Shown piece after piece: positions 29,266 through 43,293 of a stretch of 64,000 nucleotides of DNA (position 1 is the first letter of the stretch; each line of letters begins with the position of its first letter). The position numbers were made by a program, and so were the translations under genes. Below the pieces are notes generated by a model. It was not told where the DNA came from, did no database searches, and saw only the letters and a list, made by a program, of their open reading frames with translations. Where the stretch lies: NCBI GenBank assembly GCA_002897935.1, contig BDTA01000058.1:5486-69485 (forward strand). Direction: 5' to 3'. This DNA comes from a bacterium BMS3Abin08 (lineage in GTDB: Bacteria; Nitrospirota; Thermodesulfovibrionia; Thermodesulfovibrionales; JdFR-85).

Positions 29266-31317
29266 TTACAGTAAAGCGATCAGAGGAGCAATAACGAGAG
29301 ATACAACACTCATAAGTTTGATAAGTATATTCATTGAAGGACCGGAAGTGTCCTTGAATGGATCTCCAACAGTGTCCCCAACAACCGCAGCCTTATGGGC
29401 ATCCGATCCCTTACCTCCGAGATTCCCCTTCTCAATATACTTCTTGGCGTTGTCCCATGCGCCACCACCATTGGACATCATCAGGGCAAGCATCACACCT
29501 GTCGCTGTAGCTCCGGCAAGCATACCTCCAAGGGCTGCCGGCCCTAGGACAAAACCTATCACGACAGGGCTTATAACTGCAGTCAGCCCAGGCACTATCA
29601 TCTCTTTAAGGGCGGCTGTTGTGCTGATATCAACACATTTCTTGGAGTCCGGCTTCACGCCGGGCTTTCCTTCGAGAAGCCCCGGGATCTCTTTAAACTG
29701 ACGTCTTATCTCATTCACCATCTTGAAGGCTGCCCTTCCCACAGCAGTCATGGTGAGGGCGGCAATAAAGAACGGTAAGACCGCACCTATGAGTAGCCCT
29801 ATCACAACCAGTGGGTCTGTAAGGATAATGGTCAGGTGTTGCATCCCCTCGGCCGCTCTTTTTGCATTTACACTCTGTGTATAAGCTGAGAAAAGGGCAA
29901 GGGCGGTGAGGGCTGCAGAACCTATAGCAAAACCCTTTCCGATAGCTGCAGTAGTGTTACCAAGTGCATCAAGGCTATCGGTTATCTCTCTTGTATCCTC
30001 GCCAAGCCCGGCCATCTCGGAGATACCACCGGCATTATCTGCAATAGGACCATAGGCATCAACACTCATGGTGATACCTATGGTACCCAGCATGCCGACT
30101 GCAGCGATACCGATACCATAGAGTCCTGCAACCAGGTCAGCCACATAGATCGCAGCACAGATACCAAGCACAGGAAGTGCCGTACTCCCAAACCCGACAG
30201 CAAGACCTGTGATAATATTTGTTCCAGCCCCTGTCAGACTTGCTTCTGCTATTCTCCTGATAGGCTTGCCGGAGGTATAATATTCGGTGAGAAGACCGAT
30301 AACTATTCCACCGAAACAACCTGCCACGACTGCCCAGAAGACACCATTATTTACATCCATGGACGAGACTGCAAAATATGAGATGACAAGGAATATAGCG
30401 GCAGCTATAAATGTTGAGTATCTGAGGGCTGCTGCAGGGTCCATCTTCTCAAGTATCCTCATTGCGACGATACCGAGCACAGAGGCGACAATACCCACCA
30501 CTGCAAGGAGTACGGGAAGGGCCATCAGATGTAGTGCAGACCCGAGACCGGCAACCTTTGAACCTGCTACCAATCCCGCGGTAGCCCCTATAGCAATGGT
30601 TGCAATTATGGAATTCACATAAGATTCAAAGAGGTCGGCACCCATACCTGCAACATCACCCACATTGTCACCCACATTGTCCGCAATAACACCGGGGTTA
30701 CGGGGGTCGTCCTCCGGAATACCCGCCTCAAGCTTACCAACAAGGTCGGCACCAACATCAGCAGCCTTTGTATAGATACCACCACCGACACGCATAAACA
30801 GCGCTATAGATGATGCACCCATACCAAAGGCATTAATGACAAATGCAGTCTGGGGGTTGCGGGCATACAGATAATAAAATATACCCACTCCAATGAGACC
30901 GACTCCAGCCACTGAAAGTCCCATAACTGCGCCACCATTGAAGGCGACAGAGAGTGCCTTTGCCGTATCAGGCTTATATCTGTTGGCAGCCTCAGCAGTT
31001 CTGGTATTCGCCCTTGTGGCGGCGTTCATACCAAGGTATCCGGCTGCTATTGAGCATAGAGCGCCTGATAGGAATGCAACGGCTGAAGGAAGCCCGAGAT
31101 AAAGATACATGGCAATGAAGACGATGACCACAAAGATAGAAAGGATCGAATACTGCCTCTTGAGGTAGGTCATTGCACCTTCGTGTATCATTGCCCCTAT
31201 CTCCCGCATGACCTCGTTACCGGCAGGCTTCTTGGCAACTGCTGCAAGCAGGAACAGTGCTATAATCACTCCAGCGGCACCGAACAGGGGAGCAAAATTA
31301 GTTAAACCTTCCATCAA
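29266..31317 (-). CDS. hppA: membrane-integral pyrophosphate-energised ion pump (K+-dependent-type signature)
   Basis: 683 aa. Contains the DNVGDNVGD motif (present as [23 protein letters not shown]), [21 protein letters not shown] and [12 protein letters not shown]. The GNTTAA form (Ala rather than Lys) is the K+-dependent signature. Confidence 0.9.
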
Positions 31318-31479: not shown

Positions 31480-32592
31480 CTATTGCACGTCCCAGTTTCT
31501 CATTTTGGCGAATGTTATGGCAAGTGTCCTGTATCCCATGTGAGCAAGCTTGGAATAGGGAAAGTACACTATGATATAGAAAACAAAAGTCAGGTGAATG
31601 AGGTACATTGGATACGCAAGTGATGCCATATCAGCGAGTCTTATCAGCTCTGTCAGCAGCCCTGTAATGGCAATCAACAGCACCATGACTATAAAGGTCC
31701 AGTCGAATGAGGATGTCTTGGAGTTGATACCCTTGTCCTTCAATCTGTTGGCTACAATCAAGAGAATCCCGACAAGAAGCGATAAGGCGCTGAGATTCCC
31801 GAGCCACTTCATGGGATCGGCAAGTGATATAGGTGAATGACGATTGAAGGCATAGTAGTAAACCGTTATCCAGAGAGTGGTGATAAAGAGTCCCACAAAA
31901 CCATAAAACACAAGCATATGGCCATTTTTCCTGTCGGCATTTGCCTCACATTTCTCGAATTTCTTGTGGAACAGGAATTCCTTGACGGTATCTATAAATG
32001 CGGGACCGAATGTCTTCAGATAGGGGGTTTCGGTTCCCTCATTGAGGTTTTGCCAAAACCTGTTGAGACTCACCGCATAGCCGATACTTGCAAGTCCCAC
32101 GGCCGCCAAAAAAAGGATCTCAATATAGGGGATGGGAAAAAAATGGGAATAGACTATCCTCCCCTCAGGGATTTGGAGATGGCCGGTCAGACCAAGAATC
32201 ACAAGGAAAAACACAAAGGGGATCACAAGAGACAGGATGGTCAACCCGGGATTCGTCACCAGATTCCCCATAACCCTGGGGAATGCATTATCCTTGATAA
32301 CACCCTGCCTCAAGGCACCCAGGACATCACCGGGGCTTGCTCCTCTCGGGCAGTATTTCGAGCAGTCATTACAGTTATGACATGTCCATATGTCGGGGCT
32401 GGAAAACAGTTCATCCTTCAGACCCCACTGGGCCATAATCATCTGCTTTCTCGGAAAGGGGTTATCATCGGGCGAAATCGGGCAAACCACGGAACATGTG
32501 GCGCACTGATAACACTTCTTCAGAGACTCGCCTCCTGAATTCATTATTTTCTTAACAAATTCTAAATCAGGTTTAATAATCTTTTCCGTCAT
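31480..32592 (-). CDS. qmoC: QmoC, membrane subunit of the quinone-interacting membrane-bound oxidoreductase (HdrC-like ferredoxin domain + cytochrome b domain)
   Basis: 370 aa. Two 4Fe-4S motifs (CYQCATCSVVCP and CHNCNDCSKYCP) are followed by about 6 TM helices. Synteny with qmoA and qmoB. Confidence 0.85.
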   Translation of the reverse strand: MTEKIIKPDLEFVKKIMNSGGESLKKCYQCATCSVVCPISPDDNPFPRKQMIMAQWGLKDELFSSPDIWTCHNCNDCSKYCPRGASPGDVLGALRQGVIKDNAFPRVMGNLVTNPGLTILSLVIPFVFFLVILGLTGHLQIPEGRIVYSHFFPIPYIEILFLAAVGLASIGYAVSLNRFWQNLNEGTETPYLKTFGPAFIDTVKEFLFHKKFEKCEANADRKNGHMLVFYGFVGLFITTLWITVYYYAFNRHSPISLADPMKWLGNLSALSLLVGILLIVANRLKDKGINSKTSSFDWTFIVMVLLIAITGLLTELIRLADMASLAYPMYLIHLTFVFYIIVYFPYSKLAHMGYRTLAITFAKMRNWDVQ

Positions 32593-32837: not shown

Positions 32838-35042
32838 TTAGAATCCCTTATACGGGTTAGGGCCGAACCCCTCCAATCTTTCCAAAAACTCATCTAATAT
32901 CCGCGGTATTTTGTAATATTCGGAGATAGATACCTGTTCCATCTGGACCCTTCCAGACTCGAGCTTTAGTCTGTCAAGTGTTTCTGAAACCTTTGACAAT
33001 CTGATTTTCGCCAGGTGGCTTCCTGTAGCCATATGGCACTGGTAATCATCGCCATATTGACATCCCAGAATGAGTATACCGTCAATACCCTTTGAAAGGG
33101 CATCAGCCACCCATACCAGGTTCATTGAGCCTGCACATCTCAGAGGTATTACCCTAACGAAAGAATTATACTGGAGTCTGTTAAGTCCAACCATGTCCAG
33201 CGCCGGATAGGCATCATTTTCACAGGCAAAAACTATTATCCTCGGCTTTTCCTCCTCTTCTTCAGGAACCTCTATATTTTTTACCATATTTCCGATCATA
33301 TCAACTGAATAATTCTTAAAGGACATGATTCTCTCAGGACATGCACCCATACAGATCCCGCATCTCCTGCATCGCGTCGGGTTATAAAGCGGGTTTGCCT
33401 TTTCATCCTCATTGATTGCCCCGAAGGGACATTCCTCCGTGCATCTTTTGCACTGAGTGCATTTTTGCAGAAAGATATCTATATAGGATGTATCTCCGAC
33501 CCTCGGATGCACTGCCTCTCCCCTTGATGTTAATTCAACACACTGGATTGCCTTAAGTGCTGCGCCTGTGGCGTCTGTTACGGTTGAAGGAATATCCATA
33601 GGAGCCCTTACAGAACCGGCAGCGTAAACACCTGTTCTTCGGGTTTCATATGGGAAACAGATGAAGTTGGAATCAGGATAACCATTAATGAGAACCGGCA
33701 CCTCTCCTCCCTGTCTGTATTCGAGATTTAAGATGTCTGTTTCAATCATAACATATGGAATGAACTCATCCCCTGGTTTTACTCCTGGTGGAAGTACTTC
33801 CTCTCCCAATGCGGTTACAGGAACCATACCCGTGGCAAGAACAACAAGGTCAGCATTCACACTGATTTTTTCACCAAGGAGGGTATTTTCTACTTCTACC
33901 ACAAGGTCCTTATTTTCATCCTCTGTAATGCCTATAACATCTCCTTTTGTCAGGAATACCCCTGGGTCATTCTGCATACTCTTATAAAAATATTCATAAT
34001 GACCGGGTGTCCTCATGTCTTTATAAAATATGTAAGCCTTTGAATCAGGGTCCTGAAGCCTTATGTATTTTGCCTGCTTGAGAGACTCGACACAGCAGGT
34101 TGCTGAACAATAAGGCAGATGATTCTCATCCCTTTGCCCGGCGCACTGGATGAAGGCAACGCTTTTGACAGGCTTGCCATCAGAGGGACGCACCATTTTC
34201 CCTTTTGCAGCCATATCCTCCATCATATAGTTCGTTATTACATTGGGATATTTCCCAAAACCGAGATTGGTAATTTTTGTTGCATCATAAGGCACTGTAC
34301 CGGCAGCCTCAACTATAGCGCCAACTCTAAATGTCTCAGCGCCTCCATTTCGTTTGACAGTGACATCATACAAACCCGGGGCGCCATCTATCTTCTCAAT
34401 TAATGAAGATGTATAAATCTTAACCTTTGGATTCTGTTGAATCTCTTTGATTAGGTTATTAATTACCGGCTCTTCCATCTCTGCATAAGGAGGCTTCGTA
34501 GGAGGTTGTTTGTAAATTTTGGACATCCATCCGCCGAGGGATTCGTTCTTTTCTACTAAGAAGACATCATAACCTGCCTTAGCTGCCTCATTGGCAGCAG
34601 TGATTCCAGCCAGTCCGCCGCCAACAATCAGAACATTCTTAGAGGGCTCCTCTACCTTATAGGGTTCTGGTGCCTCCATCTTCTGCATCTTAAGAATGCC
34701 CATTCTAATATAGTCTTCAGCCATCATCTGTGTATCTTCATCATTAGGTGGGTGAGACCAGACAACCCCTTCCCTTAAATTTACCCTTTCCACAAGCGGG
34801 ATACCGAGATCAAAGACATCATAATTTACGCGTAGCGAACAGGCGGCAATTATAACTGCATTAACGCCTTCTTGAGCCATATCTTTTTTTATGAATTCCA
34901 CACCTTCCTTCTGACACAGCGATGGATGGGTCTTGACAAGAGGGACCTTCATTTCGGCAGCAACCTTTGCTAATTCGTCTAGGTTGATGGCATTCCCTAT
35001 TTCACAATCTGTACAGATATATAGTCCTATCTTTTTCTCCAT
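32838..35042 (-). CDS. qmoB: QmoB (HdrA-like flavoprotein with ferredoxin and MvhD-like domains)
   Basis: 734 aa. FAD motif VGGGLAGITAA, CxxCxxCxxxCP pairs (CTQCKRCTEECP and CRRCGICMGACP), and a C-terminal MvhD-like region (FACENDAY...LRCAGS). Confidence 0.9.
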   Translation of the reverse strand: MEKKIGLYICTDCEIGNAINLDELAKVAAEMKVPLVKTHPSLCQKEGVEFIKKDMAQEGVNAVIIAACSLRVNYDVFDLGIPLVERVNLREGVVWSHPPNDEDTQMMAEDYIRMGILKMQKMEAPEPYKVEEPSKNVLIVGGGLAGITAANEAAKAGYDVFLVEKNESLGGWMSKIYKQPPTKPPYAEMEEPVINNLIKEIQQNPKVKIYTSSLIEKIDGAPGLYDVTVKRNGGAETFRVGAIVEAAGTVPYDATKITNLGFGKYPNVITNYMMEDMAAKGKMVRPSDGKPVKSVAFIQCAGQRDENHLPYCSATCCVESLKQAKYIRLQDPDSKAYIFYKDMRTPGHYEYFYKSMQNDPGVFLTKGDVIGITEDENKDLVVEVENTLLGEKISVNADLVVLATGMVPVTALGEEVLPPGVKPGDEFIPYVMIETDILNLEYRQGGEVPVLINGYPDSNFICFPYETRRTGVYAAGSVRAPMDIPSTVTDATGAALKAIQCVELTSRGEAVHPRVGDTSYIDIFLQKCTQCKRCTEECPFGAINEDEKANPLYNPTRCRRCGICMGACPERIMSFKNYSVDMIGNMVKNIEVPEEEEEKPRIIVFACENDAYPALDMVGLNRLQYNSFVRVIPLRCAGSMNLVWVADALSKGIDGILILGCQYGDDYQCHMATGSHLAKIRLSKVSETLDRLKLESGRVQMEQVSISEYYKIPRILDEFLERLEGFGPNPYKGF

Positions 35043-35045
35043 GAT

Positions 35046-36311
35046 TTACCTCCTCACCAAAGATTGAATTGACTTAAGGGCTGCTGCTGCAGCAGTCTGG
35101 GCAGATGAGTAGACATCAATCGGCTTTATAGCGCAACCAGCAGCATACACTCCGGGCATACCGGTATTTGATAGGACAAAACCATCAGTATCACAAGATA
35201 CGCTTGAGGGGATTTTGCATTCTTGCGTGCTTGGAGCCATACCGGTGGCAAGTACAACAAGGTTAACCTTTTCACAAATCTTATCCCCTATAAGCGTATC
35301 TTCTGCGGTAACTGTAAGATCCTTTGTAGCAGGGTCTTCCTCAATCTTTGCAACCTTACCTTTAATAAAGTTTATATTTTCATCCTGCTGAATCTTTTTA
35401 TAAAACCTTTCATATCTCGTTCCAGGCGAACGAATGTCAATATAAAATACAAATATCTGTGCCTTAGGATATTGCTCCCGCACATAGGTCGCCTCCTTCA
35501 TAGAGGCCAGGCAGCAAATGTAAGAACAGTAAGGAAGATGGTTCTCATCGCGGGAACCGGCGCACTGGACAAAGGCCACCCTTAAGGGCTCCTTTCCATC
35601 GGAGGGTCGAAGGATTTTACCATTAGTAGGGCCATTTTGAGAGGCCAGTCTCTCCATCATCATATTTGTTACGACGTTTTGATATTTCCCGAATCCAAGA
35701 TTATCAATCTTCGCGGCATCATAAGGCTTCCAACCGGTGGCCCAGACAATAGAGCCTGTTTTTAAAGAAATACTCTCAGGCTTCATATTCAGGTCAATAG
35801 CGTTATATGTGCAAGCATCTAAACATTTGGTACATTTCTCTTTAGTGCAATATTTGTCATCAATAACATATCTCAATGGAAAGGCAAACTCATGAGGGAG
35901 ATAGATAGCCTTTGTCTTATTCATACCAAAATTGAAATCATTTGGTCTTTCTACAGGACATGCCTTAACACACTCCCCGCAGGCAGTACACCTTTCATTC
36001 ACAAAGCGAGGATTAAGCTTCACTGTTACATCAAAGTTTCCTTCTGAACCAGAGAGCTTTTCTACTTCTGCTAAGGTGTAAATTTTAACCCTCGGATTGT
36101 TCTTGATTCTTCTATAATTTATCTCAAGTCCGCAATTAGGCGGGCATAATTTCGGGAAATACTTATTAAGCTGTGTTACCCTGCCACCAAGATAGGGATT
36201 CTTCTCAATAAGCGTGACCTCATACCCAACCTCGGCTGCTTCCACCGCGGTGGTTATTCCACTTATTCCTCCACCTACAACCATTATGTTTTTTGTCTTT
36301 TCCAATGCCAT
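35046..36311 (-). CDS. qmoA: QmoA (HdrA-like flavoprotein)
   Basis: Contains VVGGGISGITTAVEAAEVGYEVTLIEK and CTACGECVKACP. Start moved to the ATG at 36311, which has the RBS tggaggaaataac; the track ATG at 36344 has no RBS. Confidence 0.9.
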   Translation of the reverse strand: MALEKTKNIMVVGGGISGITTAVEAAEVGYEVTLIEKNPYLGGRVTQLNKYFPKLCPPNCGLEINYRRIKNNPRVKIYTLAEVEKLSGSEGNFDVTVKLNPRFVNERCTACGECVKACPVERPNDFNFGMNKTKAIYLPHEFAFPLRYVIDDKYCTKEKCTKCLDACTYNAIDLNMKPESISLKTGSIVWATGWKPYDAAKIDNLGFGKYQNVVTNMMMERLASQNGPTNGKILRPSDGKEPLRVAFVQCAGSRDENHLPYCSYICCLASMKEATYVREQYPKAQIFVFYIDIRSPGTRYERFYKKIQQDENINFIKGKVAKIEEDPATKDLTVTAEDTLIGDKICEKVNLVVLATGMAPSTQECKIPSSVSCDTDGFVLSNTGMPGVYAAGCAIKPIDVYSSAQTAAAAALKSIQSLVRR

Positions 36312-36483
36312 GTTATTTCCTCCATAAATATTATTATTCCCCATAAACTTTAAACTTTAAAGTTTATCAATATACGATATATATGTATCAACCTAAACTT
36401 TTAAATAAACTAATAAATTTAATAAATCCAACCTCCTTGACCACAGGGTATTCCCCGACACTTCTCGGAAGTGCGGGGTATTC

Positions 36484-37023
36484 TCAGGGTGCTGGACGAA
36501 AACCACATTCTTCTGATTTGATTGATTCAAATGCCAGGAATACCCTCTTTTCCTTCTCTCTTTTATCATCGGGGAGTTCTTTAAATTCAATCCTCTTGAT
36601 AGCCTCAAGGGCCTCATGCCTTGAAGGTATCTCCACTAAACCGTAACCGATTGCTTTACCAGTTACCGGGTCCAGAATCTCCGCATCCTCTCCATCAGTT
36701 ATAACAGCAACGGGGATTACATAAATATCAAAGATTCTTGCACAGGATAAGACCTCCCTTTCCCATGAAGACAATGAACCACGAGAACATTTTATAATCA
36801 TGAATCTCTTTCCTTCAACACTTATAACAAGGTCAACCTTTGCCCTGTTTATTTTTTCGTCTATAACGATGTCAAATCCCCTGTCAACCTCTATATCATC
36901 TTTTGAATAACCCTTCTCTTCAATTAGAAACCGCTCTATCCCCTGCCTTACCCTTTCATCAGTTGTGTCAACAACCTTCTGCCCTGTTATAAAGTCGATA
37001 AGTTTTTTTTCAACACCATTCAT
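36484..37023 (-). CDS. HsdR_N-like (type I restriction enzyme R-protein N-terminal, PD-(D/E)XK-fold) single-domain protein
   Basis: 179 aa. Contains ERVRQGIERFLIEEKGYSKDDIEV and KVDLVISVEGKRFMIIKC, resembling the stand-alone HSDR_N_2 family. Its ATG is 2 nt after the upstream stop. No helicase, HsdM or HsdS gene is nearby. Confidence 0.55.
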   Translation of the reverse strand: MNGVEKKLIDFITGQKVVDTTDERVRQGIERFLIEEKGYSKDDIEVDRGFDIVIDEKINRAKVDLVISVEGKRFMIIKCSRGSLSSWEREVLSCARIFDIYVIPVAVITDGEDAEILDPVTGKAIGYGLVEIPSRHEALEAIKRIEFKELPDDKREKEKRVFLAFESIKSEECGFRPAP

Positions 37024-37025
37024 AC

Positions 37026-37811
37026 TTATACTGCCTTCTTTTTATACCCTTCCTTCACCTTTAATGTCTCTTCAAGCATCAGGATATATTTCAGGTATTT
37101 GAATCCGAATTTCATCAGCGCTATCTCGTCAGTCTTCATCTTCTCGACCTCTTCTTTATCAATATCAAAGAGATCAAAAAAATTGCTCTCAAAGATAAAT
37201 TTCTTGAACCTATCTATATCATAACTTGCCATGTAAAGCATGCCCTGCTTCTTCGAGTCGAGCTGGGGCTGCCCGGAGACATTTCTCCTTAACTGAATAT
37301 CTTTCCACTCCTTGTTCATCTCATCATAAAGGTCAACCCCCTGGTCAATCCTCCATGTCTCTATCGTCCACTCCTTTTCCTCCTGATAACCGAGGCAATT
37401 GGGGTCTTTTATAAAAAAGTAGAACTCTTCATTTACCGCCCCTTTCTCTGAGCCCATTATCATGAGACCCTGGCCAATGGGATAATATCTACAGTTGGAA
37501 GGACGGTCTTCATAGATACTACAGCCTTCATCTGTAACAAAGGGACATTCCCCTCCATCATCTATCATCTTAAGCGCTGCGTAAGGATGTGAGGACTTTT
37601 CATCAATATGGGTGTATGTGTATCTATCAAGTAACTCTCCTGAAGTAATTCCCAATCTATTTTTCATCCTTACGATGTCATAAGGTGTAAGAAGCACATC
37701 TGCACGACTACAGCATTTACTAAAACAGACGATACCCTTATAACACCCGAATTTGAATTTGGAATTCAGTGTGCGCTTAATAGGTTCAACAAGCCTTCTA
37801 CTCAGAAACAT
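37026..37811 (-). CDS. YkgJ/UPF0153-type cysteine-cluster protein (CxxCxxCC family), paralogue A
   Basis: 261 aa. Contains FKFGCYKGIVCFSKCC and CPFVTDEGCSIYEDRPSNCRYYP. Overlaps paralogue B by 14 nt. Confidence 0.65.
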   Translation of the reverse strand: MFLSRRLVEPIKRTLNSKFKFGCYKGIVCFSKCCSRADVLLTPYDIVRMKNRLGITSGELLDRYTYTHIDEKSSHPYAALKMIDDGGECPFVTDEGCSIYEDRPSNCRYYPIGQGLMIMGSEKGAVNEEFYFFIKDPNCLGYQEEKEWTIETWRIDQGVDLYDEMNKEWKDIQLRRNVSGQPQLDSKKQGMLYMASYDIDRFKKFIFESNFFDLFDIDKEEVEKMKTDEIALMKFGFKYLKYILMLEETLKVKEGYKKKAV

Positions 37812-38616
37812 GGGGTAACCCTTTCCCTCCCGACTGCAGGAGCTTATCCATTGCCTTATCTTTTAGTTTAAAGGTATCCTCGTTAAATAGATTGAATCTC
37901 ACCCATCTATAGCCAAAACTTAAAAGTTCTTCTTCGTCTTTCTTTATCTTTTCTATAACCTCATTGTCCACATCATAGATATCAAAAAAATTAGTTTCAA
38001 AAAGAAATCTCTTAAACTCATTCAGGTCGTAACAAGCCTTATAGAGCAACTTCGCCCTTCCAGAATCAAGCTTATTCCCCTTCTGAAAATAATCATGGAA
38101 GGTGATCTCCTTATATAATTCATTCATTTTATCATAGATATCGATCCCCTGATCTTTCTTCCACTCCGGTGTTGTCCATTGTCTTCCATCTTTTCCTCCA
38201 GAGGCGGATCTGCCTTCGGCAGAAAATCCAAGGCATGAAAGATCCTTCTTTATCAGAAATTCTTCCTCCTTCGAGGAAGCCGGGAATATGGGATACATCC
38301 TGCATGACCATGGCCTGTGCTTATATATGCTGCATCCATCCGGGGAGACAAAAGGGCAGCTTTTATTTTCATCCTCCATCATCTTAAGCACTACCAGAGG
38401 TATTCCCTCATCTCCTAAAAGCGCTACGGTATATCTTTTTAAGAACTCTCCAGAAGGCATCCATGTAGTTTTTCTCATTCTCAGGACATCATAAGGTGTG
38501 AGAAAGATGTTTACATCATTACAGCATGTATTAAAACAGGAAAGCCCTTTATGACATGAGAATTTGAATCTGTCATTTAGAGAGATTTGTTGTTCTTCGG
38601 TATATTCTTCATTCAT
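37798..38616 (-). CDS. YkgJ/UPF0153-type cysteine-cluster protein (CxxCxxCC family), paralogue B
   Basis: Contains FKFSCHKGLSCFNTCC and CPFVSPDGCSIYKHRPWSCRMYP. Start set at MNEEY (ATG 38616, RBS ggaaaggaa), because the track's 56-codon N-terminal extension is encoded by an interspersed repeat. Confidence 0.65.
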   Translation of the reverse strand: MNEEYTEEQQISLNDRFKFSCHKGLSCFNTCCNDVNIFLTPYDVLRMRKTTWMPSGEFLKRYTVALLGDEGIPLVVLKMMEDENKSCPFVSPDGCSIYKHRPWSCRMYPIFPASSKEEEFLIKKDLSCLGFSAEGRSASGGKDGRQWTTPEWKKDQGIDIYDKMNELYKEITFHDYFQKGNKLDSGRAKLLYKACYDLNEFKRFLFETNFFDIYDVDNEVIEKIKKDEEELLSFGYRWVRFNLFNEDTFKLKDKAMDKLLQSGGKGLPHVSE

Positions 38617-38636
38617 AGCGAATTCCTTTCCAATGG

Positions 38637-38720
38637 TCTTCATTCCCGCTTGTCTTGTCATTCCAGCTTGTCTGGAATCGTTCCTTGTTTTAAGAAGGAT
38701 CCCGAACGAGTCGGAATGAC
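38637..38720. repeat. hairpin-module repeat between aprA and the cysteine-cluster genes
   Basis: gtcttcattcccgcttgtcttgtcattccagcttgtctggaatcgttccttgttttaagaaggatcccgaacgagtcggaatgac is a degenerate copy of the family-A core. Confidence 0.65.
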
Positions 38721-38748
38721 ACTTGTTAGGTCTATCTAATAAATCTAT

Positions 38749-38773
38749 GGGGGTGACCTGAAAGGTCACCCCC
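38749..38773 (-). terminator. hairpin 30 nt downstream of aprA (terminator or attenuator)
   Basis: gggggtgacc-tgaaa-ggtcaccccc has a 10-bp GC-rich stem. On the minus strand it is followed by atagatttatt. Confidence 0.5.
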
Positions 38774-38803: not shown

Positions 38804-40729
38804 TTAAACGATAGGAATCATCGGCCTTTCAATCGTCTTCCATTCCTTTTTATCCGCATCATACTTGATATTTATGAAGTGTTTGTTGCCTTCATCCAGA
38901 TCCGGGTAATCTAACTTGTGGTAATATCCAGGCCATCTTGACTCTTTTCTCGCGAGTCTTGTCCTTACACATGCCATGCCGACCCACATCCTGTGAACAG
39001 CCTCCCAGGCCCTCATCAGCTCATGATTGTTCTTCTCAAGATTAACACCGAGCTTCTCTACATCCTCTTCTAGTAAACCCAATTTCCAGAGAGCTGTCTC
39101 AAGCATCTTGTCGGTTGTCTCATAATTTGTCTCCCAACTGCCTGCATATTCACCCATTATCTTCTGCAGCCTGAATAGGAAATTATGCGCTGAGATATAG
39201 TTAGGATTTACATCCGGGCTTGTTGTATATGTCTTCTTTTCCTCATAGAGGGCAACAGGTTTAAAAACTATCTCAGTGAGTTTCTTTATCGTATCATCAG
39301 ATACAGTCGGCGTGTAGCCCTTGTGATCATAGGCATACTTCACTGCTGCCTTTGCTGCAATCCTTCCCGATACATGTGAGCCACTTGAGAACTTATGCGC
39401 GCTTGCACCTATGCCGCAACCTGCTGTAAATAGACCATTGACAGTGGTCATAAAGTTATACTGCTCAGGGAATGCATCAGCATATTCTTTTGGCATAAGG
39501 TCAGGAGCACCACAGGCCCATGCACCGCAGGATGCAGCATGTGAACCTATAAAGCAAGGATCTCCTAACTGAAGCTCCGAAGGTTTTTCCAATGGGTCAA
39601 TATTCAGTGAAGCCCAGAGCGTTGCACCCGCAATAGTCATATCAAGGAAGTCCTCCCATGATTCGCTCTCATACTTCTTAAGCGCTTTTTTCTGCTCCTT
39701 TGGGTCTGTTACCTCCTTCTTTATCCTCTCTGTCACCTTCTCTGTATGCATTAACAGTGGTGACTTACCAGCCTTTGTTGCGAGTATCATCTCGTAGTTT
39801 CTCACAGGTGTTGGACAGGGCTTTATCTTTGAATACGGCGCCCACTTATCTGTCTCGGATGTATATGCAAATACATAGGGATCCCCATAAACATCCGTTG
39901 CAGGTGTCTTAAAGAGAAGGAAGAATGTCCCGACAGGTCCGTATGCGTCCTTAAACCTCGGAGGGACGAATGGCACATCCATCTGTGTAAGCTCGCCACC
40001 TGCCTGGAGAATGGTGGCATAAGTCGAGCCTCCAAGGAATGGAGGCATCCATGACCTTCCAAAGCCCTCACCCTGAGACCTTGGCCTGAATACATGGACA
40101 GCGCCGCCCAGACCATCGTAAACCGCATTTGCCTTAAACACATAGAATTTATCTTCCCTTACGCTGAAGCCTACTGCACCACATACCCTATTTGACTCCT
40201 TCTCATCCTTCAGAAGGTGCGTGATATAAACCCTCTCAATGAGCTGGCCCTTATCACCGAGGGTAGCAATGGCATTCTTTGCCGCCTCTGCCACGATAAT
40301 CTTGTAGCTCTCGCCTGATATCGCCACCTGCCATGCGCCTGATTTGGCATAATTCCCATTCTCGTCCTTCCATATAGGAAGCCCCCATTTATCGAAAGTC
40401 TTGACAGAGGAATCCACATGCCTTGCGATATCATAGATGATGTCCTGTCTTGTAAGACCCATCTGGTCATTTGTCACATACTTTACAAAATCCTCAGGCT
40501 GATGGGAATCATGTGTTACCTTTCCATCTAACCCCATATAGGTATTAATAGCAGAAAGCCCCATTGCAACAGGACCACTCCTGTCAACAGCAGCCTTGTC
40601 TACCCAGGTTACCTTTAAACCCAGTGGCTTTGTCCAGTATGAAGCCTCAACTACAGCGCCGCAGCCACCCATACCTCCACCGAGTATCAATACATCGGTT
40701 TCAATAACCTCTGTTGTAAATTCTTTCAT
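38804..40729 (-). CDS. aprA: adenylylsulfate (APS) reductase alpha subunit
   Basis: 641 aa. FAD motif DVLILGGGMGGCGA. Adjacent to aprB and sat. Confidence 0.9.
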   Translation of the reverse strand: MKEFTTEVIETDVLILGGGMGGCGAVVEASYWTKPLGLKVTWVDKAAVDRSGPVAMGLSAINTYMGLDGKVTHDSHQPEDFVKYVTNDQMGLTRQDIIYDIARHVDSSVKTFDKWGLPIWKDENGNYAKSGAWQVAISGESYKIIVAEAAKNAIATLGDKGQLIERVYITHLLKDEKESNRVCGAVGFSVREDKFYVFKANAVYDGLGGAVHVFRPRSQGEGFGRSWMPPFLGGSTYATILQAGGELTQMDVPFVPPRFKDAYGPVGTFFLLFKTPATDVYGDPYVFAYTSETDKWAPYSKIKPCPTPVRNYEMILATKAGKSPLLMHTEKVTERIKKEVTDPKEQKKALKKYESESWEDFLDMTIAGATLWASLNIDPLEKPSELQLGDPCFIGSHAASCGAWACGAPDLMPKEYADAFPEQYNFMTTVNGLFTAGCGIGASAHKFSSGSHVSGRIAAKAAVKYAYDHKGYTPTVSDDTIKKLTEIVFKPVALYEEKKTYTTSPDVNPNYISAHNFLFRLQKIMGEYAGSWETNYETTDKMLETALWKLGLLEEDVEKLGVNLEKNNHELMRAWEAVHRMWVGMACVRTRLARKESRWPGYYHKLDYPDLDEGNKHFINIKYDADKKEWKTIERPMIPIV

Positions 40730-40756: not shown

Positions 40757-41200
40757 TTATTTTTTTGTCGGGAGTTCTTTTACTCCCAGCATATCCGGCT
40801 CTGAAAACAGCAATTGATTGTTTAAATCTTCTACCTTTGCCTCAGGAAATCCCTCAAGCGCCTTTATAGAACCCTCTGGAGTAGTCCTCGTTGCATACTT
40901 AAACCTCTTGATCCTTCCATCCCTGTAAGTGATGGTCCACATGATGTCCTCTGTCCCTCTCAAGGGAGTTGATGCAGCGCCGAGGGGCATAAAGTCCTGG
41001 TATCCCCTCACATCCATAGCCTGCTGTGGACATATCTTTACACAACAGTAGCACTCCCAGCAATAAGTAGGCTCCTGATTGTAAGCCTTCATCCTCTCCT
41101 TGTCCAGCATCATCAGGTCATTGGGGCATATGTACATGCAAGCAGTTTTATCCTGCCCCTTGCAGCCGTCACATTTTTCTGTCATTACAAAACTTGGCAT
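40757..41200 (-). CDS. aprB: adenylylsulfate (APS) reductase beta subunit
   Basis: 147 aa. Begins MPSFVMTEKCDGCKG...CMYICPNDLM and continues CWECYCCVKICPQQA, giving two 4Fe-4S clusters. Confidence 0.9.
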   Translation of the reverse strand: MPSFVMTEKCDGCKGQDKTACMYICPNDLMMLDKERMKAYNQEPTYCWECYCCVKICPQQAMDVRGYQDFMPLGAASTPLRGTEDIMWTITYRDGRIKRFKYATRTTPEGSIKALEGFPEAKVEDLNNQLLFSEPDMLGVKELPTKK

Positions 41201-41349: not shown

Positions 41350-42567
41350 TTACTTCATTCCCTCTGCATATTTATGCATCTTGATCTCGACCTTTTCCGT
41401 CAACCCCTCGTAGTAAGCGCGAAGTATCTCCAGCACCTCGGTCCGGCTGAACTTATCCGAGACAGCCTCACCCTCGGAGAGCATCTTACGCAGCTTGGTC
41501 CCGCTCAGGATAAGCCTGTCCTCCTTGCTATGGGGGCATGTCTTCATCGATGCCATCTGGTCACACTTGTTACACCAGAAGGTCCAGTCAATCTTGAGGG
41601 GCTGTGTCTCAAGGGCATCCTTGGGGATCTCGTCAAAGATACGGTGGGCATCAAAAGGACCATAGTAGTCACCAACACCTGCATGGTCACGACCGACAAT
41701 AAGATGACTGCATCCAAAATTCTGTCTGAATAGGGCATGCAGAAGCGCCTCTCTCGGACCTGCGTATCTCATGTCAAGGGGATAACCACCAACCATGATG
41801 GTGTCCTTCACGAAATAGTTTTCAATAAGGGTTTCGATGGCCTTGCCCCTTACATCTGCCGGTATGTCCCCGGGCTTGAGTTTTCCAAGAAGCATGTGGA
41901 TAAAGACACCGTCACATATCTCGATTGCGATCTTGGCGAGGTATTCATGGGAGCGGTGCATGGGGTTACGGGTCTGAAATGCTGCAACTGTGGTCCAGCC
42001 CTTCTCCTCAAAGACCCTCCTTGTCTCATCGGGCCTCATATAGACCCCCTTGAACTCTTTGGGGAAGATACCCTCACTCAGGACCTTTACCGGACCGGCA
42101 AGATTTACATCTGCCTGGGCCATAACCTTTGCAACACCCGGATGTTCGGTATCTGTGGTCTTGAATACCTGTCGACACTCATGCTCCTTGTCGATTGTAT
42201 ATTTTTCGGTAATCTTCATCGTTCCCATGATCTCACCACTGTCTTCATCTACAAGGGTTACCTCTTCGCCTTCCTTGATGCTGTTTGCCTGCCCCTTTGT
42301 GGTGGAGAGCGTTATAGGAATGGGCCAGAATGTCCCATCAGCCATCTTGTACTCATCACAAACACCCTTCCAGTCATCATGTCCCATAAAACCTTCAAGG
42401 GGAGTAAACCCGCCGATACCCATCATTATAAGGTCTCCGGTCTCCCTCGAGGTCATCCTTATGTGTGTCAGGTCCTTTGCCTTTCCCATCTCCTCCTTCA
42501 GTTCATCGCCTTCAAGAAGGAGCGGGTTCAGTTTTTTCTCTTTTCCATGAGGATTAACTAACGCCAT
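41350..42567 (-). CDS. sat: sulfate adenylyltransferase (ATP sulfurylase)
   Basis: 405 aa. Contains [13 protein letters not shown] and [12 protein letters not shown]. Confidence 0.9.
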
Positions 42568-42642: not shown

Positions 42643-43293
42643 CTACTTTATGCTGTCGAGAATAGCACAGACATTTGCAAAAATCTCCTCTATATTACCC
42701 ACTCCATTGACGCTCTTAAGAATACCCTTGTTTTTATAGTACTCTATCAGAGGTGCTGTCTGGTTCTCATAAACCTCGAGTCTTTTCCTGATCGTCTCCT
42801 CCTTGTCGTCATCCCTGTGATAGAGTTCCCCACCGCATTTATCGCAGATCCCCTCTTTTGCCGGAGGACTGAAATAGATGTTGTACATCTGACCGCACTG
42901 CCTGCAGGTACGCCTGCCGGTGAGCCTCTTCATAAGGACATCAGGATCCACATCCACACTAAGCGCTATCTGAAGAGGAACGCCCATCTCACCCAAAACA
43001 CGGTCAAGTGTCTCAGCCTGAGCTGTATTTCTGGGAAAACCATCAAGTATAAACCCCTTCTTGCAGTCATCCTGCTGCAGCCTCTCCTTAACAAGCCCGA
43101 TTACAACTGAATCGGGAACAAGTTCTCCCTTATTCATATAGGACTTTGCCTCTGTGCCAAGGGGGGTACCGTCTGCTACGGCCTTTCTGAGGATGTCTCC
43201 GGTAGATATCTGTGGAATGCCATACTTGTCGATAAGTTTCTTAGCCTGGGTCCCCTTGCCTGCTCCTGGTGCACCAAGAAGAACGATTCTCAT
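42643..43293 (-). CDS. adk: adenylate kinase (Zn-finger lid type)
   Basis: 216 aa. P-loop GAPGAGKGTQ. Lid cysteines CRQCGQMY...CDKCGG. Confidence 0.9.
   Translation of the reverse strand: MRIVLLGAPGAGKGTQAKKLIDKYGIPQISTGDILRKAVADGTPLGTEAKSYMNKGELVPDSVVIGLVKERLQQDDCKKGFILDGFPRNTAQAETLDRVLGEMGVPLQIALSVDVDPDVLMKRLTGRRTCRQCGQMYNIYFSPPAKEGICDKCGGELYHRDDDKEETIRKRLEVYENQTAPLIEYYKNKGILKSVNGVGNIEEIFANVCAILDSIK

Follow-up and report, generated by a model that had tools for sequence, protein, structure and literature searches.

Cysteine-cluster protein pairs encoded with aprBA: a candidate accessory module of dissimilatory APS reduction in environmental sulfate reducers

What do three uncharacterised genes do between the genes of adenosine 5′-phosphosulfate (APS) reductase (aprBA) and those of the Qmo complex (qmoABC)? 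The question is raised by a stretch of 64,000 nucleotides (nt) from bacterium BMS3Abin08 (Nitrospirota; contig BDTA01000058.1, positions 5,486 to 69,485), which is called the window throughout. The reduction of APS is one of the two redox steps in dissimilatory sulfate reduction, and the electron route to AprBA, with possible further proteins, has been debated since the discovery of the Qmo complex. An earlier note, based on the letters of the window, had described the three genes as a paralogous pair with cysteine clusters (here Y1 and Y2) followed by a gene for an HsdR_N-fold protein (here H3), and had put the cysteine-cluster proteins forward, with a hedge, as candidates for accessory or maturation components in APS reduction. 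Comparative genomics supports this proposal. It is judged likely, with good confidence, that Y1 and Y2 are functionally linked to APS reductase and Qmo, and they apparently represent an undescribed accessory module of a known pathway, drawn from a known but almost uncharacterised protein family.

The well-known loci lack such genes. As the earlier note had stated, aprBA is there followed directly by qmo: by the published locus tags, qmoA comes right after aprA in S. fumaroxidans (PMC5947623) as well as in T. yellowstonii and a number of Nitrospirae bins (PMC5812927), and the Y pair is therefore dispensable for core APS reduction. In the full text searched, literature on YkgJ, UPF0153, PF03692 or COG0727 combined with apr/qmo terms did not describe the linkage, and the proteome supplement of Ca. 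Sulfobium lists no Y-type proteins.

One genome per species was scanned with two conserved peptide patterns, and 58 loci were returned, all from metagenome-assembled genomes (MAGs). The loci were mapped by tblastn with the window proteins; 54 were assessable, and 4 were cut off at a contig end. The MAGs are labelled as Nitrospirota/Thermodesulfovibrionia, Thermodesulfobacteriota (Syntrophobacteraceae, Syntrophaceae, Desulfobacteria and the complete ORM2a genome) and Acidobacteria. The aprA gene lies immediately upstream of the first Y gene in 44 of the 54 assessable loci, and Y2 comes next in 37 of these 44. A Y gene directly follows the hppA gene of an aprA-qmoABC-hppA cluster in 6/54 loci, and no upstream apr/qmo gene was seen in 4/54, one of which has hppA-qmoCB beside a second Y copy. 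In at least three phyla, Y1 and Y2 are handed down together with aprBA as one unit, and because the arrangement recurs across phyla, it is far beyond chance.

More distant relatives, at 30–40% identity, occur in other arrangements. Thermodesulfobium narugense DSM 14796, a sulfate reducer in culture, has the gene order adk-sat-DUF6955-aprB-aprA-qmoA-qmoB-qmoC-Y, and the Y gene begins 20 nt past qmoC. On one metagenome contig (L061), two Y paralogues follow qmoAB-hdrCB, with true CCG proteins separately encoded; on another (L062), a Y-SDR-Y group is divergent from aprBA-qmoA. In Syntrophobacteraceae, a third Y paralogue follows qmoAB-hdrCB (L047; the HdrCB-like gene was judged from sequence only). 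Related family members have therefore come independently to adjoin apr/qmo genes, and the varied arrangements of the deep relatives favour function over frozen synteny. By the refuting condition of the earlier note, homologues elsewhere would never lie near apr/qmo; the outcome is clearly in favour of the note.

The earlier note had also placed the genes exactly at the apr/qmo junction and had called them tightly coupled. Overlap-type coupling is a feature of the window, and the partner of the pair is aprBA rather than the junction as such. The pair follows aprBA even where qmo lies elsewhere or a second aprBA intervenes: three loci have aprBA-Y1-Y2 without qmo behind (L002, L012, L020), and three others (L019, which is ORM2a, CP113000; L021; L028) have the order sat-aprBA(76%)-Y1-Y2-aprB′A′(48%)-qmoABC, with two tandem copies of aprBA. 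As for coupling, the two short distances that had been reported were read off the sequence of the window, where the Y2 ATG (37811–37809) lies inside Y1, whose stop codon is at 37800–37798, giving a 14-nt overlap (ATGTTTCTGAGTAG), and the H3 ATG at 37023 lies 2 nt past the Y2 TAA (37028–37026). In the other loci, the gaps between Y1 and Y2 range from -10 to ~700 nt.

The identities between two groups of loci that differ in Qmo type bear on the partner of the pair. Mean identity between the groups was 0.79 for AprA, 0.71 for Y2 and 0.67 for Y1, values close to those found within each group, and 0.60 for QmoA and 0.61 for QmoB, as against within-group means for QmoA and QmoB of 0.80/0.83 and 0.68/0.67. 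These values are consistent with a cassette of aprBA-Y1-Y2 that passed from one phylum to another and there joined qmo genes already in place, and they suggest that the Y pair tracks aprBA more than qmo.

Y1 and Y2 are cytoplasmic YkgJ-type paralogues that stem from an ancient duplication. They are 39% identical over 263 residues (E 3e-71) and share the motifs FKF-C-x5-C-x3-CC, LTPYD, CPF...GC.IY..RP..CR.YP, DQG.D.YD and NFFD, so that the paralogy and the common motifs pointed out earlier are borne out. The family predicted for both, PF03692, was recovered above its gathering cutoff of 23 bits (Y1, 44.5; Y2, 39.8), as was PF13588 for H3. Eight cysteines (C21-x5-C27-x3-C31-C32, C87, C95, C105 and C128 in Y1 numbering) are invariant among 62 orthologues of both paralogues, and in an alignment of 63 cluster representatives with only 27–42% identity to Y1, each of these positions is either invariant or conserved to 90% or more. 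The spacing of the first four is x5/x3, as against x2/x2 in the name of the PF03692 family. The PF03692 domain spans only about residues 21–125; the C-terminal half is a helical domain with conserved motifs of its own (DQG.D.YD, YD.D.F, FFD) and without a Pfam match. The AlphaFold2 (AF2) model of Y1 had a predicted local distance difference test score (pLDDT) of 75 overall, with residues 149–264 confident and the C-terminal half at 90–97.

Homology searches returned 888 homologues for Y1 and 1946 for Y2. The best 120 of the Y1 homologues were 61–100% identical, and all but the near-identical top match were at most 81% identical. An exhaustive profile search gave 262 cluster representatives with a cutoff of E <= 1e-30, and 1337 when this was relaxed to E <= 1e-10; since most members are 240–280 amino acids (aa) long, this is a sizeable family of fixed architecture. 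NCBIfam has no family for Y1, Y2 or two further paralogues, even at E <= 10, and PADLOC has none for Y1/Y2. An assignment of Y1/Y2 as HdrB/HdrD-like CCG proteins (PF02754) was rejected, given that Pfam yields PF03692 only.

The only biochemically characterised PF03692 protein is FliB, the flagellin lysine-N-methyltransferase of Salmonella (PMC8598068). An O2-sensitive [4Fe-4S] cluster, bound by its CX4CX3CC motif, is required for the methylation of flagellin dependent on S-adenosylmethionine (SAM), and FliB has eight conserved cysteines (PMC8598068). By analogy, Y1 and Y2 would bind an Fe-S cluster or a metal. That they are redox-capable and take part in APS reduction is an inference. In the reading that is preferred, though held tentatively and at somewhat less than even confidence, they act on the enzyme AprBA by a maturation-type mechanism. 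Y1 and Y2 would form a heteromeric metalloprotein, most probably with [4Fe-4S]-type clusters as in FliB and alternatively with Fe or Zn, and this heteromer would be a dedicated accessory of the dissimilatory APS reductase. It would mature, repair or post-translationally modify AprBA, or insert its cofactors, and would perhaps do the same for the related flavo-Fe-S subunits QmoAB; electrons would not have to pass through it. The part of H3 would be that of an adaptor or scaffold without catalytic activity. A role on the enzyme is preferred because the FliB precedent is a cluster-dependent enzyme with a protein substrate, because one member of the family is fused to a radical SAM/SPASM maturase and followed by two tiny open reading frames (ORFs), because the model sulfate reducers are without Y genes, and because the hairpin in front of the Y genes should keep their expression below that of aprBA.

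A number of points weigh against this reading. Distance-matrix (Mantel-type) correlations were all similar (r = 0.56–0.76) and did not show which of Apr and Qmo co-evolves with the pair; for Y1, r was 0.59 with AprA and 0.65 with QmoA. AF2 confidence was low in the metal-binding cysteine loops of Y1, the Y-family profile gave only a chance match among all PDB sequences (E 0.25), and Foldseek found none under E 3.7 for the Y1 model against the PDB. The two-pattern scan was biased toward close relatives of Y1/Y2, and the fraction of all apr loci with Y genes is not given by it. Five more distant family members lie in surroundings without an apr/qmo link; because several distant members are unlinked in this way, the chemistry of the family is taken to be general and recruitment to Apr to be limited to some subfamilies. 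Furthermore, Y1 is conserved at 55–81% and Y2 at 62–90% across phyla, close to AprA, and such high conservation would be compatible with a stoichiometric complex subunit at least as well as with a helper. The retention of all eight cysteines in both paralogues is compatible with a pure electron carrier too.

The last two points are the starting ground of the alternative that comes a close second, which is possible but tentative: a soluble Fe-S Y1-Y2 protein would dock on AprB or QmoA/B as an electron relay or third partner, feeding or withdrawing electrons. In its variants, it might form a link to a low-potential donor, or Qmo might be replaced or supplemented where the aprBA cassette came horizontally. 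The cluster bound by the FliB motif is redox-active, aprBA-Y1-Y2 stands without adjacent qmo in several genomes, and other family members adjoin Fe-S flavoproteins (ETF-QO, NuoF-like, LutB-like). In the literature, early in vitro passage of electrons from Qmo to Apr was not reconstituted and further partners were suggested (PMC3333476), and a second electron donor with confurcation was proposed (PMC4215793). On the other side, AprBA and Qmo of the model sulfate reducers work without the Y pair, qmoAB(C) comes right after Y2 in most loci and Qmo is thus not replaced, the known family precedent FliB is an enzyme and not a carrier, and Foldseek with the Y1 model did not find a ferredoxin-like fold match.

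It is likewise conceivable, if doubtful, that Y1-Y2 is an unrecognised Fe-S component of APS reduction in environmental sulfate reducers (Nitrospirota, Syntrophobacteraceae, Acidobacteria, Thermodesulfobium). Such a component may be an extra electron partner that reduces AprBA by confurcation or by bypassing Qmo, or it may be a FliB-like [4Fe-4S] enzyme that post-translationally modifies APS reductase. Within either form, QmoD of Desulfovibrio might be a diverged counterpart.

The earlier note had grouped H3 with Y1 and Y2. This holds for part of the Nitrospirota and one deep-branching lineage, and not for the other Y loci. Of the 14 Nitrospirota loci with Y2 as well as qmoA, 8 have H3 between the two, 6–42 nt after Y2; a 37%-identical relative is found in L062 near the Y pair and aprBA, 1.9 kb past the Y-SDR-Y group, and a deep-branching relative is also near a Y gene in L069. 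There are ~160 homologues of H3, nearly all in Nitrospirota and 45–97% identical, and many are on contigs that equal in length those of Y1/Y2 hits and are probably identical with them. The PF13588 match (54.6 bits, cutoff 25) covers profile positions 2–110 of 110. The AF2 model (pLDDT 82) has a restriction-endonuclease-like fold, and the best Foldseek match was the nuclease domain of BsaXI (E 1.6e-4, at the highest Foldseek probability), followed by Cas4 SSO0001 and other PD-(D/E)xK proteins. By motif inspection, a conserved catalytic D...(D/E)-x-K motif was not found in the orthologues: D64 and K72 are ~90% conserved, the acidic position ahead of this lysine is variable (E/K/Q), and the sequence of the following strand is M-I-I-K/S/R-C. 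Since the orthologues are without a conserved (D/E)xK motif, a catalytic nuclease role is unlikely. Conserved cysteines are C79 and C94, together with a C-terminal C-x3-C in most orthologues.

For H3 only, an improbable alternative is that it is a restriction, defence or mobile-element remnant, inserted between Y2 and qmoA in one Nitrospirota lineage and unrelated to sulfur. The R subunits of type I restriction systems have PF13588 as their N-terminal domain, the weak matches of H3 are to the N-termini of defence methyltransferases only, and six of the 14 loci just mentioned are without H3. Against this, no hsdM/hsdS, helicase, restriction, defence or mobility genes were seen near H3 in the window and related loci, the catalytic motif is not conserved, nearly all homologues share position and phylum with the tight spacing after Y2, and the relatives in L062 and L069 again lie near Y genes. 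A reading of H3 as a defence gene was accordingly rejected, partner genes and a conserved catalytic motif both being absent. H3 is probably a lineage-specific, non-catalytic third member of the module.

That the Y genes have no functional link to Apr and hitch-hiked with a horizontally spread aprBA cassette, the synteny being recent common descent, is considered more improbable still. The AprA proteins of all Y1/Y2-type loci are 71–81% identical, which fits one transferred cassette, and the distant family members unlinked to apr/qmo point the same way. This alternative is opposed by the independent deep arrangements (after qmoC, after qmoAB-hdrCB, after hppA, and divergent from aprBA) and by strong purifying selection, which keeps both genes intact by aprA despite insertions (L013, L018) and rearrangements around them.

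The hairpin between aprA and Y1 to which the earlier note had drawn attention exists, with a 10-bp GC-rich stem, and lies ~30 nt past the aprA stop codon in the window. A hairpin GGGGCGACC-loop-GGTCGCCCC with an A/T-rich tail is present in ~38 of 40 related loci (L002–L047) from two phyla, ~25–30 nt after the aprA stop, and it moves together with the aprBA-Y1-Y2 cassette. Of the 10 pairs in its consensus fold, 4 show compensatory changes, the GTGACC/GGTCAC of the window being among these changes. Rfam has no family for the apr-qmo spacers, the hairpin included, and the simple T-run pattern used in the promoter/terminator scan misses this conserved hairpin and gave no more sites than shuffles. 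The hairpin is probably a partial terminator or 3′ stabiliser that raises aprBA expression above that of the downstream genes. In the preferred reading, it would keep Y1-Y2-H3 (and qmo) transcribed at a lower level than aprBA, as would suit a sub-stoichiometric helper. Least probable of the alternatives, and very unlikely, is that the Y1/Y2 cysteine clusters sense redox state, sulfite or iron and modulate Apr/Qmo activity or expression: cysteine-cluster proteins are commonly sensors, the genes stand behind the conserved hairpin where aprBA and downstream expression would diverge, and a large PAS histidine kinase precedes one distant member while an HTH gene comes after another, but Pfam and NCBIfam detected no DNA/RNA-binding or signalling domain in Y1/Y2, a paralogue pair keeping all cysteines is unusual for a regulator, and the conservation is above the regulator norm.

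The order that the earlier note had given for the minus strand, adk-sat-aprB-aprA-Y1-Y2-H3-qmoA-qmoB-qmoC-hppA, was reproduced by the ORF list and the hidden Markov model (HMM) searches (Table 1). The bit scores of aprA, aprB and qmoC were judged against NCBI equivalog cutoffs. The start of Y1 was set at 38616 because every orthologue begins at the methionine of MNEEYTE; a longer, 328-aa ORF reaching 38784 was rejected, its added N-terminus spanning the hairpin and a dispersed repeat. The qmoA gene is 70–86% identical to its counterparts in related Nitrospirota loci. The adk slot is likewise filled in related loci and in Thermodesulfobium narugense. The promoter/terminator scan of the H3-qmoA spacer gave only consensus-level promoter-like matches, with no excess over shuffles.

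Table 1. Features of the sulfate-activation/APS-reduction cluster and its spacers in the window.
Feature	Position	Strand	Evidence
adk (adenylate kinase), heads the cluster	42643..43293	-	Pfam PF00406, E 3.7e-60
sat (sulfate adenylyltransferase)	41350..42567	-	Pfam PF01747 + PF14306
aprB (APS reductase beta subunit)	40757..41200	-	TIGR02060, 210 bits vs cutoff 136
aprA (APS reductase alpha subunit)	38804..40729	-	TIGR02061, 757 bits vs cutoff 642
GC-rich hairpin, 10-bp stem, GGGGGTGACC-TTTCA-GGTCACCCCC, A/T-rich tail	38749..38773	-	Sequence reading and fold
Dispersed genome-specific repeat copy, core GACAAGCNGGAATGA twice, long imperfect hairpin	38632..38725	-	Core matches, copies aligned
Y1, 272 aa, YkgJ-type Cys8 protein	37798..38616	-	PF03692, E 2.6e-11
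Y2, 261 aa, Y1 paralogue	37026..37811	-	PF03692, E 7.8e-10
H3, 179 aa, HSDR_N_2 (PD-(D/E)xK fold)	36484..37023	-	PF13588, E 1.3e-14
H3-qmoA spacer, AT-rich, 139 nt; possible internal qmoABC promoter region	36345..36483	-	Sequence reading
qmoA	35046..36344	-	HdrA-like matches; alternative start ATG at 36311
qmoB	32838..35042	-	HdrA-like + VhuD-like C-terminus; synteny
qmoC	31480..32592	-	NF038018, 470 bits vs cutoff 300
hppA (membrane pyrophosphatase), closes the cluster	29266..31317	-	PF03030, 874 bits

The sat gene of the window is 68–79% identical to that of L026, L032 and L034 and 61–71% identical to that of the Desulfobacterota loci having a sat match, and only 27–36% identical to the sat in the same position of most sister Nitrospirota loci (L004–L018 compared). 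The contrast between 68–79% and 27–36% therefore means that two sat types share one slot. In T. narugense (L059), the small uncharacterised DUF6955 gene between sat and aprB lies at 2438–2755.

The spacer between aprA and Y1 folds with z = -5.9, and its extra length and second large hairpin are due to the repeat copy, which is not part of the conserved module. The repeat core has 12 matches in the window, as against 0.45 expected (19123, 19279, 19612, 23086, 26173, 28740, 38640, 38658, 45981, 58174, 58231 and 58351), and the repeat unit is ~85–90 nt long with internal hairpins. Low-complexity insertions or extensions of 30–40 residues (e.g. NATHVLHGNTKDNENNPPSPPFNKGGMGGFSG) were seen at about residue 115 of the Y1 orthologues P0060 and P0063 and at the C-terminus of H3 in L008; they look like translated intergenic repeats that entered coding regions.

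Several further observations were made on the related loci. An insertion of 2.6–3.3 kb splits Y1 from Y2 in L013 (10760–14065) and L018 (10770–13430), and in L018 it carries a vWA-domain protein and an opposite-strand 173-aa Cys-rich ORF. Essentially the same apr-Y-qmo cluster occurs in L006, L015, L030, L038 and L040, which were deposited as Nitrospinota, Methanobacteriota, Pseudomonadota and Ca. Methanoperedens bins; these odd labels are probably binning or labelling errors. A tblastn search against plasmids gave two records only, NZ_CP061967.1 and NZ_CP061968.1 (L072–L074), both without annotation and labelled as Klebsiella pneumoniae plasmids. They carry, respectively, sat-aprBA and an unlinked Y-family gene beside a NuoF-like gene and a spore-germination permease, and look like mislabelled contigs of a Gram-positive sulfate reducer.

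Other members of the family were found in different company. A maturase of the radical SAM/SPASM type associated with ribosomally synthesised and post-translationally modified peptides (RiPP-type) is fused to a full Y-family domain in L066 (2942–5014) and L067 (2990–5062; P0290, the second such protein being P0401). The fusion in L066 is followed by ORFs of 51 aa and 55 aa, precursor-peptide-like, and L067 shows a 51-aa ORF before the contig end. This fusion is the sole hint, an indirect one, at FliB-like SAM-dependent methyl transfer to a protein. In the complete chromosome of a Syntrophobacteraceae MAG (L012, 15257–20086), a third Y paralogue (257 aa) follows etfB-etfA-like ORFs, recognised by eye, and an ETF:quinone oxidoreductase, recognised by Pfam, 7 kb from aprBA-Y1-Y2.

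Among abundant, mostly uncultured sulfate reducers, a gene pair of the apr-qmo cluster that is nearly as conserved as AprA is a testable candidate for a missing accessory. A link to Apr would place the YkgJ/PF03692 family, which is large and almost uncharacterised, in a physiological setting, and Thermodesulfobium narugense offers a cultured organism for study. In addition, an aprBA cassette that is distinct and horizontally mobile can be recognised by the Y pair and the conserved hairpin, a point relevant to the use of aprA as an environmental marker gene.

Among the known systems close to the Y proteins are the YkgJ/YeiW-type proteins of UPF0153 (PF03692, COG0727): both Y1 and Y2 exceed the Pfam gathering threshold and their homologues are named in databases as ‘YkgJ family cysteine cluster protein’ or ‘Fe-S-cluster containing protein’; they form a distinct subfamily of 250–270 aa with a conserved C-terminal domain. 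FliB and Y1/Y2 have in common the N-terminal C-x(4-5)-C-x3-CC, the eight conserved cysteines and the cytoplasmic location. Y1/Y2 differ from FliB in that they are shorter, form a paralogous pair and have their own C-terminal helical domain. They were rejected as FliB orthologues, with no NCBIfam match even at E <= 10, and flagellar genes were not seen near them, the neighbours being aprBA/qmoABC genes in the window and in 50/54 related loci. H3 shares with BsaXI-like and stand-alone HSDR_N_2 proteins (PF13588) the full-length domain match and the restriction-endonuclease-like fold. Unlike type I/IIB restriction enzymes, it is without a conserved (D/E)xK motif and without methylase, specificity or helicase partners, whereas it has conserved cysteines and a fixed slot after Y2 in the apr-qmo cluster.

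Lineage-specific proteins have also been described from apr/qmo clusters themselves. Deletion of DVU0851, which encodes QmoD, is reported to delay growth on sulfate. QmoD (DVU0851/Dde_1114) is a 25.8-kDa soluble protein encoded after qmoC, as the fourth gene of the qmo operon, and co-expressed with qmo in Desulfovibrio; it was pulled down by rubredoxin, and Chhabra et al. found no DVU0851 homologues outside Desulfovibrio. Mapping of transposon insertions gave none in Dde_1111-1114 (PMC4045070). The Y member of Thermodesulfobium holds the same position after qmoC, the two being compared by position only, whereas Y1/Y2 of the window precede qmoA rather than follow qmoC. AprM occurs in sulfur oxidisers, and HdrBC/HdrD occur alongside QmoAB in sulfate reducers that are Gram-positive or, in some cases, delta-proteobacterial; both are lineage-specific genes within apr/qmo clusters and are considered to adapt APS reductase's electron path. 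The Y proteins are without the membrane segment of AprM and the CCG domain of HdrB/D, and in contrast to these modules, they are found together with QmoC or HdrCB-type genes and do not take their place.

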